Sequence record: KX689784
DNA length: 39,024 nucleotides
From: Escherichia phage JSS1
Strand: one strand, 5' to 3'
Notes under the pieces: generated by a model
The model's input: only the letters and a program-made list of their open reading frames with translations
Database searches by the model: none
What the model was told of the DNA's origin: nothing
Made by a program: the position numbers and the translations under genes
Shown: piece by piece, positions 598 through 36,961 of the stretch
How the letters are laid out: each line of letters begins with the position of its first letter
Numbering within the stretch: the stretch's first letter is position 1

Positions 598-746
598 ATG
601 CTACATACCTCCTGTATCTATGGTCGGTGACTATCTGTATTGGAGGGATTATGATTAATATCACCCTCCTGACTATATGGAGACCTATAGTCCTTACCTA
701 TATGCTAACTTTTAGTCGGCATACTATAAGGTCCCCCCGGTCCCCC

Positions 747-769
747 CATCCCTATAGTGATAGTTAAGT
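747..769 (-). promoter_or_regulatory. Phage RNAP promoter (phiOR-like), consensus class
   Basis: Minus-strand CTTAACTATCACTATAGGGATGG; full match to the repeated promoter motif; +1 G at 752. Confidence 0.8.
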
Positions 770-6409: not shown

Positions 6410-6432
6410 GTTTCCTATAGTGATAGTTTAGT
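6410..6432 (-). promoter_or_regulatory. Phage RNAP promoter (phi17-like), consensus class
   Basis: Minus-strand GGACTAAACTATCACTATAGGAAACGG, overlapping the gene 16 stop. Confidence 0.8.
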
Positions 6433-13685: not shown

Positions 13686-13708
13686 AGTCCCTATAGTGAT
13701 AGTTAAGG
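13686..13708 (-). promoter_or_regulatory. Phage RNAP promoter (phi13-like), consensus class
   Basis: Minus-strand CTTAACTATCACTATAGGGACTATAGG. The +1 region partially repeats the promoter core (CCTATAGTCC-CTATAGTG on the plus strand). Confidence 0.8.
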
Positions 13709-16906: not shown

Positions 16907-16946
16907 GCAAAAAAACCCCTCAAGCACCCGAAGGCACCCAAGGGGT
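16907..16946 (-). terminator. Intrinsic terminator (T7 Tphi equivalent)
   Basis: Minus-strand RNA ACCCCUUGGGUGCC-UUCG-GGUGCUUGAGGGG then UUUUUUU: 13 bp stem including G-U pairs, UUCG tetraloop, U7 tract. Immediately after the 10B stop. Confidence 0.8.
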
Positions 16947-16951
16947 TTCAA

Positions 16952-18264
16952 TTAGTTTGTGAACGAAACGTTGAATGACCTAACGGTAGACCCGTCATAT
17001 CCAACAGTTACAAGACCTGTCACAGCATCGGTGGCCTTGAAGTAGAGACTTGAAGTTCTACGAGAGTAGCTCACACCATCCGGCATGGTTACATCCAGCA
17101 GAGACCAGTCGGTCACATCTGCCAGCTCAGGGAAGTCAACCTTAAGACTGACACCCACTGAGGACTCCAAGGTTTCCAAGGTAGGACCCTCAGTAGAGAG
17201 AGTCCTGAAGGTCATTAACCCTTTGCTGCTTGACTGAAAACCAGAGCACCAGCCGCTTCAGGGCGCAGACCACCGTGACCCATAGCGTATTTACCAACAA
17301 TCAGGTCGCCCTGAGCATCGACGTCACGGTCACGTTCCAGCGCCAAGTCACGCAGCTTCACAGTACCAACAGCAGAACGGTGAGAGAACAGACCCACAAC
17401 GTTGTCCATAGCAACTTTAACAGCGCCAGTAGCAGTTGCCGGGAATGCGTGTTTCTGACCGGAAGCGATAGAAATACCATCGTCACCACGAGTCTCACCA
17501 GCGCCACCCTGTACCAGATGCGGAACCTCGACAACAACGAAGCCCATCACGTTACGGATGTTACCAGTCTCTGGATCAATCAGCGCAGCATAGTTAGCAG
17601 CGTTCGGCATCAGAGCGGCGAGGATTGCAGAGTAGTTGTCAGGCGTGGTGTAGAAGTAACGGTCGCCAGCAGGAACGTAGTTGGAGGTCAGCTTCGCACG
17701 AGCAATGGTCAGTTGACCAATGATTGCCTCACCCAGCTTAGCCGGAGTGTTCAGGTCGGCTTTAGTACCAACTTCAAGTACTGACGCAGTGCCCAGACCG
17801 GCAATATTTTCGTTGGATGCAGCCGGGAGGTTACACAGGAGAGCCATTTCAGCCAGAACCGCACCATCAGCAGCGATAGCCAGAGCTTCACCCAACTGGT
17901 TGGAGTACTCGCCAGCCACGTCATAGTGGTTCATCGCGTCTTCAATGTCGAAAATCATCACATCGGCAGTCAGCAGACCATCAATGGTAATCACTTTCTC
18001 TGTATGTTTGATACCTTTACGCTTATCGGACAGTCGCTCACCCGGAGCCAGATACACACCAGAGGTGCGACCCATGACCGGGAACTGAGCAGACTTACCG
18101 TTCTGAATGGTACGGACAATATGCTTGTCAGCGGTTACAGAGCGGCGAGTGAATGCGGTCAGGACTTCACCAGCAAAGACCTTCAGGAACAACGCCAGAG
18201 CGTCGGAACTGGATTTGCCTTTACCTTGGTCTGTACCAATTTTCTGACCCGGAACGTTTGCCAT
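16952..18264 (-). CDS. 10B: Major capsid protein 10B, predicted -1 frameshift product of gene 10
   Basis: The -1 frame at the end of 10A is open across the slippery site and continues to TAA at 16952, adding about 94 aa. The arrangement parallels T7 10A/10B. Confidence 0.55.
17215..18264 (-). CDS. 10A: Major capsid protein 10A (349 aa)
   Basis: Very strong similarity to T7 gp10A (KSAQFPV.GRT, HTEKVITIDGLLTADV, MPNAANYAALIDPE, RSAVGTVKLRDLALER, GKYAMGHGGLRPEAAGA). AGGAGA RBS. Confidence 0.96.
   Translation of the reverse strand: MANVPGQKIGTDQGKGKSSSDALALFLKVFAGEVLTAFTRRSVTADKHIVRTIQNGKSAQFPVMGRTSGVYLAPGERLSDKRKGIKHTEKVITIDGLLTADVMIFDIEDAMNHYDVAGEYSNQLGEALAIAADGAVLAEMALLCNLPAASNENIAGLGTASVLEVGTKADLNTPAKLGEAIIGQLTIARAKLTSNYVPAGDRYFYTTPDNYSAILAALMPNAANYAALIDPETGNIRNVMGFVVVEVPHLVQGGAGETRGDDGISIASGQKHAFPATATGAVKVAMDNVVGLFSHRSAVGTVKLRDLALERDRDVDAQGDLIVGKYAMGHGGLRPEAAGALVFSQAAKG
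17236..17242 (-). other. Candidate -1 programmed ribosomal frameshift slippery site GGUUUUC
   Basis: mRNA CUG-GUU-UUC-AGU lies 6 codons before the 10A stop; the -1 frame stays open into the downstream ORF. Confidence 0.55.
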
Positions 18265-18366: not shown

Positions 18367-18389
18367 TCTCCCTATAGTGATAGTTTAGT
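18367..18389 (-). promoter_or_regulatory. Phage RNAP promoter (phi10-like), consensus class
   Basis: Minus-strand GGACTAAACTATCACTATAGGGAGACCAAGA; perfect GGGAGA initiation region. Confidence 0.85.
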
Positions 18390-19362: not shown

Positions 19363-19385
19363 TGTTCCTATAGTGATAGTTTAGG
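19363..19385 (-). promoter_or_regulatory. Phage RNAP promoter (phi9-like), consensus class
   Basis: Minus-strand GCCTAAACTATCACTATAGGAACAACGG, overlapping the gene 8 stop. Confidence 0.8.
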
Positions 19386-22122: not shown

Positions 22123-22183
22123 CTTGAATCTCCTCTTTAAGTTAAGACTAAAGTCTATCTTATAGTCATATCTTAGGTCCTAA

Positions 22184-22206
22184 AGTCCCTATAGTGATAG
22201 TTTAGT
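22184..22206 (-). promoter_or_regulatory. Phage RNAP promoter (phi6.5-like), consensus class
   Basis: Minus-strand CACTAAACTATCACTATAGGGACTTTAG. Confidence 0.8.
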
Positions 22207-28021: not shown

Positions 28022-28044
28022 CATCCCTAAGGTGATAGTTTAGT
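28022..28044 (-). promoter_or_regulatory. Variant phage promoter (class II-like; CACCTTAGG instead of CACTATAGG)
   Basis: Minus-strand CTAAACTATCACCTTAGGGATGG: the upstream half is consensus, two changes at -4/-3. Position matches T7 class II promoters before gene 4. Confidence 0.45.
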
Positions 28045-30815: not shown

Positions 30816-30838
30816 CTGTCCTACAGTGATAGTTTAAG
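30816..30838 (-). promoter_or_regulatory. Variant phage promoter (phi2.5-like; CACTGTAGG)
   Basis: Minus-strand CTTAAACTATCACTGTAGGACAG: one change at -3. Overlaps the gene 2 stop, upstream of gene 2.5. Confidence 0.5.
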
Positions 30839-31790: not shown

Positions 31791-31813
31791 GTGTCCTATA
31801 GTGATATCTTAGG
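31791..31813 (-). promoter_or_regulatory. Variant phage promoter (phi1.5/1.6-like)
   Basis: Minus-strand CTAAGATATCACTATAGGACACC: consensus -8 to +2, changes at -12/-11. Confidence 0.5.
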
Positions 31814-33863: not shown

Positions 33864-33885
33864 AATCCTATAGTGATAGTTTAGG
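33863..33885 (-). promoter_or_regulatory. Phage RNAP promoter (phi1.1-like), consensus class
   Basis: Minus-strand AGCCTAAACTATCACTATAGGATTAG. Confidence 0.75.
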
Positions 33886-34187: not shown

Positions 34188-36869
34188 TTAAGCGAATGCA
34201 AAGTCTGAAGACAAGATGTCTTCGATATTCAGTTTACCTTTCTTCGGAAGCTCAGGCAGCTTGTCGCGCTGACTCTCATGTAGCTGGTATTCAAACTGCT
34301 CGTAGAAGTCAAGCAGCACATCGTTGTCTCGGTAGGTCTCAACCATCGTCTCACGGACGCCACGGAACAGATATTCAGCGTCAGCCGGGATGGTCCCAAA
34401 GCTATCGTGAATCACTGCGAATGACATCACGCCATACTTGCGGTGCGTGTGGACTACAGTCTTGCGGAGGTGGCTACCATCTTGCGAGTGGACGAAATTC
34501 GGGCTAATGCCTGACTCCTGCTTGTGCTTGTCCAGCTCCTTCTTAGTGCCTTTGTTGACTGTAGGCTGAAGGTTGAATGACCCTAGGAACATAAGGTTCA
34601 GACGAGTAGTATCCTTCTTGCGGTATTCCTGCCAGACAGGGAAACCATCAGGTGTGACCCAGTGTACCGGAAGGCAAGGCTTCAGGGTTTCACCAGTCTT
34701 CTTGTCCTTCACCTCAGCAGCCAGCAGCTTGGCAGCACCTTGCAGCCACTTCATCGCGTCAACCGCAGCAACTACGGTCACACTCACAGCTTCCCAAATC
34801 ATCTTAGCCATGAAGCGAGACGCTTGGCTTGGTTCAGTGAACATAGCGCCAGACCCTGAATCAATCGCTGGCATCACGATATCCTCGTAAACTTGGTCTG
34901 CGAAGCCATACTCTTTCGACCCGTAGGCCAGAGTCATGACCGAACGCTTAGTGACCTTGCGTGACATACCGTAGGTCAGCCACTGACGGGCCAGCTCTCG
35001 TGTCCCCAGCTTGAGACGTTCGGTAATCTCACCAGTTTTCTTGTCCTCGTGAGTTACCATCTCGTTGTCCGTACCGTTAACCAGCAGGACTTTAAGCTCC
35101 TCCTCAATGCGGTCGGACACGATGCGGTAGATGTCTTGGACCTTACCGGATGGCGTCAGGTTTACTGCATGTCCACCGATGTGGTCACGAAGCATCGCGC
35201 TGAAGTGCTGAATCCCAGAGCAGGACCCATCGAACGCTATCGGTAGCGAGCAGGAGTAAGACAGGCCGTGGTGCATTACGCCAGCATACTCGAAGCAGAA
35301 CGCAAGGAAGCAGAACGGAGAGTCTAACCTGCCCCACCACTCAATGCTATCCATCGGGGCTTTGGCAGCAGCCATGATGTTGTCGTGGTTGTCTTCCACC
35401 CACTTGATGCGCTCCTCGAAGGTGACTTTATCGACACCCGCACAGTTTGCACCATGGACCTTCAGCCATTTGAAACCATCAGCACCAATAGGCTTACCGA
35501 CTGCCAGAGTCAGGAGACCCTTCTGCATGTCGTTACCCTGAGGGTTGAACATCGGCACAGCGTAGACGCGACCGCGCCAGTCCATGTTGTATGGGAACCA
35601 GATGGCCTTGAACTGAGAGAACTTATTCGCTTGGTTGACGATAAAGCTCAGTGACAATCTGCGTGACTGTCTGGCCTTCTCGCGGCGATAGATGCCAGCA
35701 GCAGCCTTCTTCCATGCCTTGAGTTCCTCCTCGGTCTCACCCGCATAGTCCTCAGGCTTCAGTGGTTCCATCTGAGGGATGTCATCAATAGGCGTATTGT
35801 TCAGCTTCTCTACCATGTTCACCACGTCCAGCACCTTCTTGTTCACTTTCCAAGGTGTATTCTGGATGATGTTTACTGCCTCGTAGACTTCAGGCATATA
35901 CACGTCTTCGTAACGTGCTACCGCAGACTTAGACCCTAAGCGAATCAGTGGTAATGGTCTGCGACCTTTGGCCCAGTACCCACCACCTACGACACCCGTC
36001 CACGGCTTAGGTGGAACGACGCAAGGCTGATAGACTGGCGCAATACCCGCAAGGCTGAATCCACGTTGTGCCATCTTCTTTACCCAGAAGTCTGACAGGT
36101 GGACCATCTCAACATCAGTCGCTGCATTGCCAGCACCGTAACGCTTAAGCTCAACCAGTTGTGTAGACTGGATGACAATCTCAAGCATCTTGATGCCAAC
36201 GTGTACCGCTTCGGTCGGACTCCAAGTACCCCACGCATCTTCCAGTTGACCTTGCTCCAGCATGGAGGTCTCAACCGCTTGCATGTAGGCTTTCTTATAG
36301 GATGCCCCGGCTCGCTTGTTCAGGTTCTCAGCTATCGCCTTCTTGAAGTGCTCCTGCTCCTTGTCACGAATGCGACCGAAGCGGATTTCATCCTCAAGTG
36401 TACGGCCTATCGCGGAGGCCATCGGTGTAATCGGGATACCTTCAGGCTTGACCAGCTTGGAGAGGATGACCTTCAGTATGATGACCGCAGCAGACTCACA
36501 GGAGATGCGCAGAGAGCGGTCCTTTACGGCCTTCTCTTCAGTGCTCAACATGGTGAACGCTACGCTAGGACGAGAGGTTGACAGCTTCCCGTCTGGGCCT
36601 TCATGCCACTCCTTGACGGCTTGCGCAATCTTAGGGACCAGAGTCTGCATCAAAGGTTTGGCGACCTGATTGTCTGCCAGTTCCCCGCGCTCTGTCTGGC
36701 GCTCAAGGTTCTTGATGAAACGTCGCTCGCCTTCAGTGTATGCCTCATGCTCAAGCTGAAGCTGTTTTACTGCAAGGTCCTGCCCGTAGTGGTCGGCCAG
36801 CAGGTTAAACGGCTCAATTGCGTTCGACACGTCAGAGAAGTCGTGTTTGTCAATGGAGATGACGCTCAT
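34188..36869 (-). CDS. 1: DNA-directed RNA polymerase, single subunit (T7 gp1 homolog, 893 aa)
   Basis: Colinear with T7 RNAP (DFSD...PFN.LADHYG, RFGRIRD, PCVVPPKPWTG..GGGYWA.GRRPL, WFPYNMDWRGRVYA, DGSCSGIQHFSAMLRD, NFVHSQDGSHLRKTV, C-terminal FAFA). The segment between LQPT and HKQESGI, where my recollection places the T7 specificity loop, is diverged. Confidence 0.98.
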   Translation of the reverse strand: MSVISIDKHDFSDVSNAIEPFNLLADHYGQDLAVKQLQLEHEAYTEGERRFIKNLERQTERGELADNQVAKPLMQTLVPKIAQAVKEWHEGPDGKLSTSRPSVAFTMLSTEEKAVKDRSLRISCESAAVIILKVILSKLVKPEGIPITPMASAIGRTLEDEIRFGRIRDKEQEHFKKAIAENLNKRAGASYKKAYMQAVETSMLEQGQLEDAWGTWSPTEAVHVGIKMLEIVIQSTQLVELKRYGAGNAATDVEMVHLSDFWVKKMAQRGFSLAGIAPVYQPCVVPPKPWTGVVGGGYWAKGRRPLPLIRLGSKSAVARYEDVYMPEVYEAVNIIQNTPWKVNKKVLDVVNMVEKLNNTPIDDIPQMEPLKPEDYAGETEEELKAWKKAAAGIYRREKARQSRRLSLSFIVNQANKFSQFKAIWFPYNMDWRGRVYAVPMFNPQGNDMQKGLLTLAVGKPIGADGFKWLKVHGANCAGVDKVTFEERIKWVEDNHDNIMAAAKAPMDSIEWWGRLDSPFCFLAFCFEYAGVMHHGLSYSCSLPIAFDGSCSGIQHFSAMLRDHIGGHAVNLTPSGKVQDIYRIVSDRIEEELKVLLVNGTDNEMVTHEDKKTGEITERLKLGTRELARQWLTYGMSRKVTKRSVMTLAYGSKEYGFADQVYEDIVMPAIDSGSGAMFTEPSQASRFMAKMIWEAVSVTVVAAVDAMKWLQGAAKLLAAEVKDKKTGETLKPCLPVHWVTPDGFPVWQEYRKKDTTRLNLMFLGSFNLQPTVNKGTKKELDKHKQESGISPNFVHSQDGSHLRKTVVHTHRKYGVMSFAVIHDSFGTIPADAEYLFRGVRETMVETYRDNDVLLDFYEQFEYQLHESQRDKLPELPKKGKLNIEDILSSDFAFA

Positions 36870-36938: not shown

Positions 36939-36961
36939 GAGTCCTATAGTGATAGTTAAGT
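36939..36961 (-). promoter_or_regulatory. Consensus-class phage RNAP promoter about 75 nt upstream of the RNAP gene
   Basis: Minus-strand ACTTAACTATCACTATAGGACTC, identical over -17 to +2 to the promoters at 747 and 13686. Transcript 5' end contains GACUCAAGGUC. Confidence 0.7.

Follow-up and report, generated by a model that had tools for sequence, protein, structure and literature searches.

The RNA polymerase of Escherichia phage JSS1 and its eleven promoters: a probable K1F-type pair with residue 756 as the likely specificity switch

RESULTS

The locus and its relatives

The DNA analysed, hereafter the window, is a stretch of 39,024 nt from Escherichia phage JSS1 (KX689784). It is 99.98% identical to Escherichia phage PE3-1, of the genus Kayfunavirus, and its strand is the reverse complement of the PE3-1 genome orientation. 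Phage K1F (Kayfunavirus K1F, DQ111067) is about 94-95% identical to the window over most of its length; the tail gene codes for an endosialidase in K1F and for a lyase in the window. The features considered are gene 1, three segments and one codon within it, eleven promoters and one terminator (Table 1).

Table 1. Features of the window (promoter numbering: +1 is the first G; +1 positions are given in the remarks)
Feature	Coordinates	Strand	Remarks
Gene 1, single-subunit T7-like DNA-dependent RNA polymerase, 893 aa	34188..36869	-	ORF list, structure match, Pfam
AT-rich recognition loop equivalent (T7 93-101), DGKLSTSRPSV	36561..36593	-	2-aa insertion; alignment
DNA-reading part of the specificity loop, TTRLNLMFLGSFNLQPTV	34557..34610	-	window residues 754-771 = T7 744-761; alignment
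Codon N766 (= T7 R756), likely main specificity switch	34572..34574	-	alignment; published contacts
Segment VNKGTKKELDK	34527..34559	-	window residues 771-781 = T7 761-771; C-terminal base of the loop; alignment
Promoter upstream of gene 1	36941..36961	-	+1 36944; ACTTAACTATCACTATAGGAC; 75 nt 5' of the gene 1 ATG; K1F counterpart +1 2491
Promoter downstream of gene 1.1, upstream of gp1.15	33865..33885	-	+1 33868; CCTAAACTATCACTATAGGAT; class II region, consensus core
Promoter upstream of PE3_013 (K1F counterpart gene 1.6)	31793..31813	-	+1 31796; CCTAAGATATCACTATAGGAC; G at -12, A at -11
Promoter upstream of gene 2.5	30818..30838	-	+1 30821; CTTAAACTATCACTGTAGGAC; G at -3
Promoter upstream of gene 4 (primase/helicase)	28024..28044	-	+1 28027; ACTAAACTATCACCTTAGGGA; C at -4, T at -3; identical in K1F
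phi6.5	22186..22206	-	+1 22189; consensus; annotated phi6.5 in the record
phi9	19365..19385	-	+1 19368; consensus
phi10	18369..18389	-	+1 18372; consensus, then GGGAGACC as in T7 class III promoters
phi13	13688..13708	-	+1 13691; T at -14
phi17	6412..6432	-	+1 6415; consensus; upstream of the tail protein (lyase) gene
Right-end promoter, phiOR-like	749..769	-	+1 752; T at -14; upstream of gene 19.5
Tphi-like hairpin terminator	16912..16949	-	17-pair stem then T run; 3' of the capsid gene; annotated terminator in the record

Gene 1 is identical at the nucleotide level (100%) to PE3-1 gp1. As the initial annotation had proposed, its product is colinear with the T7 enzyme: residues 1-893 align end to end with T7 1-883 (1aro/1cez structures, 1276 bits), with an identity of 63.8%. 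Two Pfam domains scored above threshold, RNA_pol (PF00940, E = 4.5e-106, 355.8 bits) and RPOL_N (PF14700, E = 2.1e-14, 54.1 bits), and all five catalytic or active-site residues (T7 D537, D812, K631, Y639 and H811) are invariant in a six-polymerase alignment. The protein thus belongs to the T7-like single-subunit family, and it is predicted to carry out promoter-dependent transcription by itself, as published for K1F-type enzymes (PMC12218169). It differs from T7 RNAP by an 11-aa insertion and by a diverged AT-rich loop. The K1F RNAP is far closer, with 99.1% amino acid identity (8 substitutions over 893 aa): all eight substitutions fall outside the DNA-binding elements, the specificity loop and the AT-rich loop are identical, and there is not a single difference across T7 735-785.

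A family of eleven promoters on one strand

The sequence MCTWAACTATCACTATAGGR recurs at eleven sites, every one of them on the minus strand. A search with TAAACTATCACTATAGGR allowing up to three mismatches returned exactly these 11 sites, against 0.04 expected (100 shuffles); five have no mismatch, four have one and two have two. A weight-matrix scan of the window added one degenerate site, at 22160, to the 11 and gave none on the opposite strand. The consensus, from -17 to +4, is M C T W A A C T A T C A C T A T A G G R A. The part from -8 to +2 (TCACTATAGG) is the same as the T7 core, while ACTA replaces the T7 CGAC at -12 to -9; the family, its T7-like core and this replacement had all been recognized in the initial annotation, and they hold. 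A further difference that it left out lies at -17 to -14, where T7 has TAAT and the window promoters MCTW. ACTAT at -12 to -8 is followed by CACTATAGG in 10 of the 11 sites, the remaining one having GATAT. No promoter of T7, T3, K11 or SP6 type was found in the window, and T7 promoters scored with the window matrix gave -2 to -18 bits. K1F carries the same 11 promoters, and the degenerate site as well, at orthologous positions; its phi2.5 and phi4 promoters deviate as those of the window do, whereas its promoter upstream of the 1.6-region gene has GCTAT instead of GATAT.

That these 21-mers are promoters was judged here on sequence, and repeated sequences of this kind could in principle be another element, such as packaging or recombination signals. 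We consider this extremely improbable. Besides sharing the T7 core from -8 to +2, the sites are all oriented with transcription and occupy the positions of T7 phi2.5, 6.5, 9, 10, 13, 17 and OR; the Tphi-like terminator downstream of the capsid gene argues in the same direction, and the same type of sequence drives expression with a K1F-type polymerase (PMC3458549; PMC12218169).

Promoter layout

Each site precedes an annotated gene and falls either between genes or at the end of one. Four, of which three are off-consensus, belong to the DNA-metabolism region; a further five are at 6.5, 9, 10, 13 and 17, one is at the right end and one directly upstream of gene 1. By comparison with the T7 annotation, this is a T7-type layout of promoter classes, with near-consensus sites at 6.5, 9, 10, 13 and 17; T7 itself has a similar arrangement (class II and class III positions, right-end promoter, Tphi terminator) but 17 promoters instead of 11. 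Three sites deviate within -12 to -3, and all are in the gene 1-6 region, upstream of the 1.6-region ORF, gene 2.5 and gene 4. They are the deviant sites that had been placed in the DNA-metabolism region at 28022, 30816 and 31791; the 18-mers start at 28025, 30819 and 31794, an offset of 3 nt. The class II promoters may be weaker than those of class III, with phi2.5 and phi4 giving indirect hints of this.

The G at -3 of phi2.5 is kept in K1F and in the GW1-like phages. It is not universal for phi2.5 of the clade: in one related locus (L094) phi2.5 is consensus and the G at -3 is found at another promoter. The phi4 promoter is off-consensus in both the K1F-like and the GW1-like lineages, with different substitutions.

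T7 has no phage promoter upstream of gene 1, and the window has one. The PE3-1 GenBank record, from which seven of the 11 promoters are absent, labels this site 'host RNAP promoter'. We rejected that assignment, since 17 of the 18 positions of the phage consensus are matched and the core is of the phage type. Host promoters would be the first to express gene 1; a scan of the early region for sigma-70 promoters found 2 against 3.4 expected, no excess over chance.

The specificity loop and residue 756

The stretch equivalent to T7 744-761, TTRLNLMFLGSFNLQPTV, is the same in the window and K1F enzymes (S754, N756 and V761 in T7 numbering, which is used for loop residues throughout). Compared with T7 it shows Q744T, Q754S, R756N and I761V, while R746, N748 and Q758 are retained. 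T7 R756 is among the four residues with hydrogen bonds to promoter bases (PMC11880802, after the 1cez structure), and a coupling analysis of T7 740-767 detected promoter coupling only at 746, 748, 756, 757 and 758 (PMC11880802). Grafting the K1F loop onto T7 744-761 (Q754S, R756N and I761V) redirects T7 RNAP to ACTAT at -12 to -8 (Temme 2012; Zhu 2025); the resulting enzyme works on ACTAT promoters and is orthogonal to the T7, T3 and N4 types (PMC3458549; PMC11880802 Table 2), with an orthogonality ratio of 8 (PMC11880802 Table 2). The native K1F RNAP and its own promoter form an orthogonal expression pair, and the enzyme is orthogonal to MmP1 and VP4 (PMC12218169).

Natural variation was followed in a set of about 100 related polymerase/promoter loci, including K1F-like relatives gathered with the window protein as query. 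Over this set residues 748, 756 and 758 track the promoter sequence at -12 to -8: NNQ and NHQ go with ACTAT, DRQ with ACCCT, NRQ with CGACT, KNK with GGACA and KNF with GGTAG. With N at 756 the window RNAP is outside the T7 specificity group (N748/R756/Q758; CGACT), and it is assigned from its N/N/Q residues and its ACTAT promoters to the K1F-type group. The idea of polymerase-promoter co-variation with a specificity distinct from that of T7 is thus supported, the specificity being the same as the K1F type. The change of R756 to N is likely to be the switch, and the window RNAP is predicted to discriminate against T7, T3 and other promoter types, a prediction indirectly backed by the absence of T7-, T3-, K11- and SP6-type sites from the window. 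The contacts of N756 at the atomic level are inferred. The T7 residue N748 is kept even though positions -11 and -10 are not those of T7, which leaves a code of one residue for one base incomplete.

The GW1-like phages of Cronobacter provide a natural contrast. Their RNAPs are 88-89% identical to that of the window, with the NKGGSKELDK segment and the promoter positions in common, and differ from it by N748D, S754T and N756R. ACCCT stands at -12 to -8 of their promoters, that upstream of gene 1 among them, as in T3 (D748/R756/Q758).

The candidate originally put forward as the matching recognition element was another one, the segment VNKGTKKELDK (T7 761-771), which lies between LQPT and HKQESGI. 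It does differ from its T7 counterpart, INTNKDSEIDA, at 8 of 11 positions, and the alignment places it at the base of, and inside, the nominal specificity loop (T7 740-769; PMC13614062), not outside it, which is the placement that the initial annotation had named as refuting. The graft that transfers specificity, however, stops at T7 761, so that V761 is the sole overlap (PMC3458549; PMC11880802 Table 2), and there is no strong coupling past residue 758 in T7 740-767 (PMC11880802). Natural variants also speak against it: GW1-like phages retain NKGGSKELDK and yet have D748/R756 and ACCCT promoters; PPWS4-like Pectobacterium phages have an unrelated NTYETVGIDA and yet N748/H756 and ACTAT promoters; L094 combines an NLGKSKEMDK segment with AGGTA promoters; and K1F-group members differ from one another in the segment (T to S or M, K to R) with the promoter unaltered. 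That VNKGTKKELDK co-varies with ACTA as a recognition element is therefore very unlikely; on the sequences compared, it is best read as a marker of the K1F-like lineage and not as a specificity determinant. The informative change, R756N, falls in FNLQPT, just upstream of the LQPT motif that had been taken as a conserved flank.

The upstream region and the AT-rich loop

The region from -17 to -13 may have a reader of its own. DGKLSTSRPSV, in which the RGKRP/KGRKP motif known from T7, T3 and K11 is missing, accompanies MCTWA at these positions, versus TAATA or AATTA elsewhere. We tentatively entertain the possibility that this loop, perhaps together with the adjacent 11-aa insertion, reads MCTWA (with C at -16) as a second determinant, in which case the change at 756 would be necessary, yet not the whole code. 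The (near-)invariance of -16 C, -15 T and -13 A across the 11 window promoters favours it, as do the pairings found among the related loci: GKLSTSRPSV with mCTAA in the K1F group alone, STRGKPQV with aTTAA in the GW1-like phages, AKRGKRPT with TAATA in T7, and loops of the KGRKP/RGKKP/TGRKH type with AATTA in T3, K11 and PPWS4. This co-variation is confounded with phylogeny, there being few independent lineages, and minor-groove reading of the AT-rich region is usually tolerant of variation; we consider such a second determinant less likely than not.

Engineered enzymes bear on the same point. The T7(K1F) RNAP and PK1F pair (Temme et al. 2012; Segall-Shapiro et al. 2014) has 754S, 756N and 761V, as the window RNAP does, and ACTATC at -12 to -7, as the window promoters do, but its backbone is that of T7, and so are its upstream TAATA and its initiation region, whereas the native window RNAP differs in the AT-rich loop and has MCTWA upstream in its promoters. 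The graft, which kept this TAATA, had a modest activity (PMC3458549; PMC4299498): induction was only 17-fold and the split-polymerase format required an extra M750R (PMC4299498). Contributions from elsewhere in the native enzyme are therefore possible. The graft experiments do not cover the -17 to -14 difference or the diverged AT-rich loop.

DISCUSSION

The gene 1 product is, to judge from the comparisons above, essentially the K1F enzyme, and we are highly confident in the explanation as a whole, namely a K1F-type RNAP acting on K1F-type promoters with the loop change at 756 as the match. Our own observations comprise the sequences with their statistics, the identity to K1F and the co-variation over about 100 loci; grafting and orthogonality are from published work. 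As in T7 RNAP, the specificity loop, a beta-hairpin placed in the major groove, would read the promoter at about -12 to -7, and the N-terminal AT-rich recognition loop would read further upstream. ACTAT, instead of the T7 CGACT, would be matched by R756N, alongside Q754S and I761V, and the eleven promoters on one strand would organise transcription in the T7 style.

The pairing of polymerase and promoter is already known as the K1F specificity. The K1F pair has reportedly been known since the sequencing of the K1F genome, and synthetic biology has used it as a standard orthogonal part since 2012. A systematic decoding of how T7-like polymerases co-vary with their promoters followed in 2025. 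As a discovery the present result has little weight; its value is corrective, in that it points to T7 position 756, and not to 762-771, as the part of the loop that carries the specificity. It also fills the promoter gaps of the PE3-1 record (seven missing sites and one mislabelled).

For the phages themselves, the promoter upstream of gene 1, which is clade-wide, would provide a positive feedback on the RNAP that is absent in T7 and T3. If the AT-rich loop is indeed a second determinant, the natural code goes beyond the three loop residues of the published graft. Finally, the clade offers a clean natural switch, from ACTAT to ACCCT with N748D and N756R, in which the remainder of the loop is constant.

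Polymerase and genome

The 893-aa product of the polymerase ORF carries both Pfam polymerase domains and aligns end to end with the T7 RNA polymerase of solved structures (63.8% identity), which bears out the colinearity proposed from the sequence alone. Gene 1 of Escherichia phage PE3-1 has the same nucleotide sequence as this ORF (100% identity), and that of coliphage K1F is about 95% identical; at the protein level K1F differs by 8 substitutions (99.1% identity), none of them in T7 residues 735-785. Reverse-complemented and permuted, the window as a whole agrees to 99.98% with the record of PE3-1 (KJ748011, genus Kayfunavirus). The record has 73 nt (739-811) missing from the window (738-745), in an array of about five 16-nt tandem repeats (AACCATAGGTCTCAAC) adjoining the annotated concatemer junction. 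At the end-to-start join of the record the window reads GGGGGGACCGGGGGGACC (window ends 1 and 39024); the joined record would give a run of 12 G. Elsewhere there are 7 mismatches and 1 gap.

Promoter family

A search of the window with TAAACTATCACTATAGGR, allowing up to three mismatches, returned exactly 11 matches, all on the minus strand (0.04 expected from shuffles): five without mismatch, four with one and two with two. These are the eleven promoter-like sites already noticed. Aligned on the initiating G, their consensus is MCTWA (-17 to -13), ACTAT (-12 to -8), CACTATA (-7 to -1) and GGRA (+1 to +4). As the initial annotation had it, the -8 to +2 core is identical to that of T7, and -12 to -9 reads ACTA versus CGAC in T7. 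A further difference, which it did not mention, is MCTW at -17 to -14 versus TAAT in T7. A weight matrix built from the 11 sites gave no match on the other strand and one additional, degenerate site; T7's own promoters score negatively under it, and a scan of the window for promoters of the T7, T3, K11 or SP6 type found none. In K1F the same matrix recovers all 11 promoters and the degenerate site, each at its orthologous position.

Specificity determinants

The segment between LQPT and HKQESGI, which had been proposed to match the promoter family, does differ from T7 (VNKGTKKELDK here versus INTNKDSEIDA). In T7 numbering, the loop changes from T7 are K740R, P742K, I743D, Q744T, Q754S, R756N, I761V, T763K, N764G, K765T, D766K, S767K, I769L and A771K. 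In T7, hydrogen bonds to promoter bases are made by R746, N748, R756 and Q758 (PMC11880802, which cites the 1cez structure); here R756 is replaced by N and the other three are kept. Temme et al. replaced T7 Q744-I761 by the K1F sequence and promoter positions -12 to -7 by the K1F consensus; the resulting polymerase was active and orthogonal to the other types (PMC3458549). In Table 2 of Zhu et al., the K1F-loop variant has 754S, 756N and 761V, with ACTAT at -12 to -8 as its cognate, and their coupling analysis over T7 740-767 found promoter coupling at 746, 748, 756, 757 and 758 only (PMC11880802). The native K1F polymerase and promoter are in use as an orthogonal pair for expression and mutagenesis (PMC12218169). 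Sufficiency for specificity is settled by the literature. The pairing in the window is of the K1F type, already known and characterised, and the phage that carries it is a deposited, K1F-like one.

VNKGTKKELDK (T7 761-771) overlaps the grafted stretch at V761 only. Natural variants were sought in about 100 loci with T7-like polymerase genes (flanks up to 10 kb), from each of which the loop and the promoters with a CACTATAGG core were extracted. Residues 748/756/758 and promoter positions -12 to -8 pair as NRQ with CGACT (T7 group), DRQ with ACCCT (T3, GW1-like), KNK with GGACA (K11), KNF with GGTAG (KP32-like), NNQ with ACTAT (K1F group) and NHQ with ACTAT (PPWS4-like). Two GW1-like loci (L096 and L103, the latter Cronobacter phage GW1), with polymerases 88-89% identical to that of the window, keep the distal segment (NKGGSKELDK) and have D748, T754 and R756 with ACCCT promoters, including the orthologues that precede genes 1, 2.5 and 4. 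In Pectobacterium phages PPWS4 and PP81 (L077 and L079) the segment, NTYETVGIDA, is unrelated, but N748, S754, H756 and Q758 go with ACTAT. The K1F group itself has variants of the segment (T to S or M, K to R, V to I) with a constant promoter. The segment is therefore separable from specificity: placed at the hairpin base, it marks the K1F-like lineage and is not the reader of ACTA. It lies inside the nominal specificity loop (T7 740-769; PMC13614062), so that its claim as determinant fails by function and not by location; the distinct polymerase-promoter specificity itself stands.

In keeping with this separation, a third K1F-clade lineage (L094) has an NLGKSKEMDK segment and AGGTA promoters, which brings the clade to at least three promoter specificities (ACTAT, T3-like ACCCT and AGGTA). 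Since promoter positions are conserved among the three, promoters and contact residues 748/756 have been switched together within one lineage.

N748 is the same as in T7, yet -11 and -10 differ. The K1F-loop graft has modest activity and required M750R in split format (PMC4299498). A second possible protein-DNA co-variation, overlooked in the initial annotation, concerns the AT-rich recognition loop and positions -17 to -13. The loop reads DGKLSTSRPSV versus KAKRGKRPT in T7, has no RGKRP/KGRKP motif and is followed by an 11-aa insertion, EEKAVKDRSLR (polymerase residues 111-121). At the same place, K11 and KP32-type polymerases have a 20-aa insertion, for which an extra DNA contact has been suggested (PMC13580328). 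The diverged loop and the insertion accompany a distinct upstream MCTWA, in place of TAATA or AATTA; of the 11 sites in the window, 10 have C at -16. Judged from sequence, loop and insertion could form a second determinant, in a co-variation confounded with phylogeny.

Promoter organisation

Promoters were placed on the genes of the PE3-1 record and compared with T7.

Polymerase features and promoters in the window
Feature	Span	+1	Strand	Departure from consensus
Polymerase ORF	34188-36869		-	
AT-rich recognition loop	36561-36593		-	
11-aa insertion	36507-36539		-	
Promoter upstream of gene 1	36941-36961	36944	-	T at -14
Promoter after gene 1.1		33868	-	consensus
Promoter upstream of 1.6-region gene		31796	-	G at -12, A at -11
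phi2.5, upstream of gene 2.5		30821	-	G at -3
phi4, upstream of gene 4		28027	-	C at -4, T at -3
phi6.5		22189	-	consensus
Degenerate twelfth promoter-like site, CCTAAGATATGACTATAAGAT	about 22157-22177	22160 (predicted)	-	G at -7, A at +1
phi9		19368	-	consensus
phi10		18372	-	consensus
phi13		13691	-	T at -14
phi17		6415	-	consensus
Right-end promoter, upstream of gene 19.5		752	-	T at -14

A Tphi-like hairpin lies 3' of the capsid gene. All three sites that deviate within -12 to -3 fall in the DNA-metabolism region, as had been noticed. The off-consensus bases of phi2.5 and phi4 are the same in K1F; the phi2.5 G at -3 is also present in GW1-like phages, and phi4 is off consensus in both lineages, by different substitutions. 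This pattern is compatible with weak class II promoters being maintained.

The degenerate site lies 29 nt downstream from the start of phi6.5 and is identical in K1F (+1 at 17223). A similar element, GATTAGACTATAGG, occurs in GW1-like phages (20545 in L103), where it follows a consensus-like promoter site at a distance of about 50 nt.

The PE3-1 record annotates only 4 of the 11 promoters and gives one of these as a host promoter; its hypothetical proteins include the products of several core genes (primase/helicase, DNA polymerase, portal, capsid). The site labelled 'host RNAP promoter' is the one before gene 1, 75 nt upstream of the polymerase start codon. All three specificity types of the K1F-like clade, ACTAT, ACCCT and AGGTA, keep this site (+1 at 2491 in K1F, 9918 in L103 and 3366 in L094), and it has no annotated counterpart in T7 or T3. 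A phage-type promoter at this place, as predicted from its sequence, would mean positive feedback for the polymerase.
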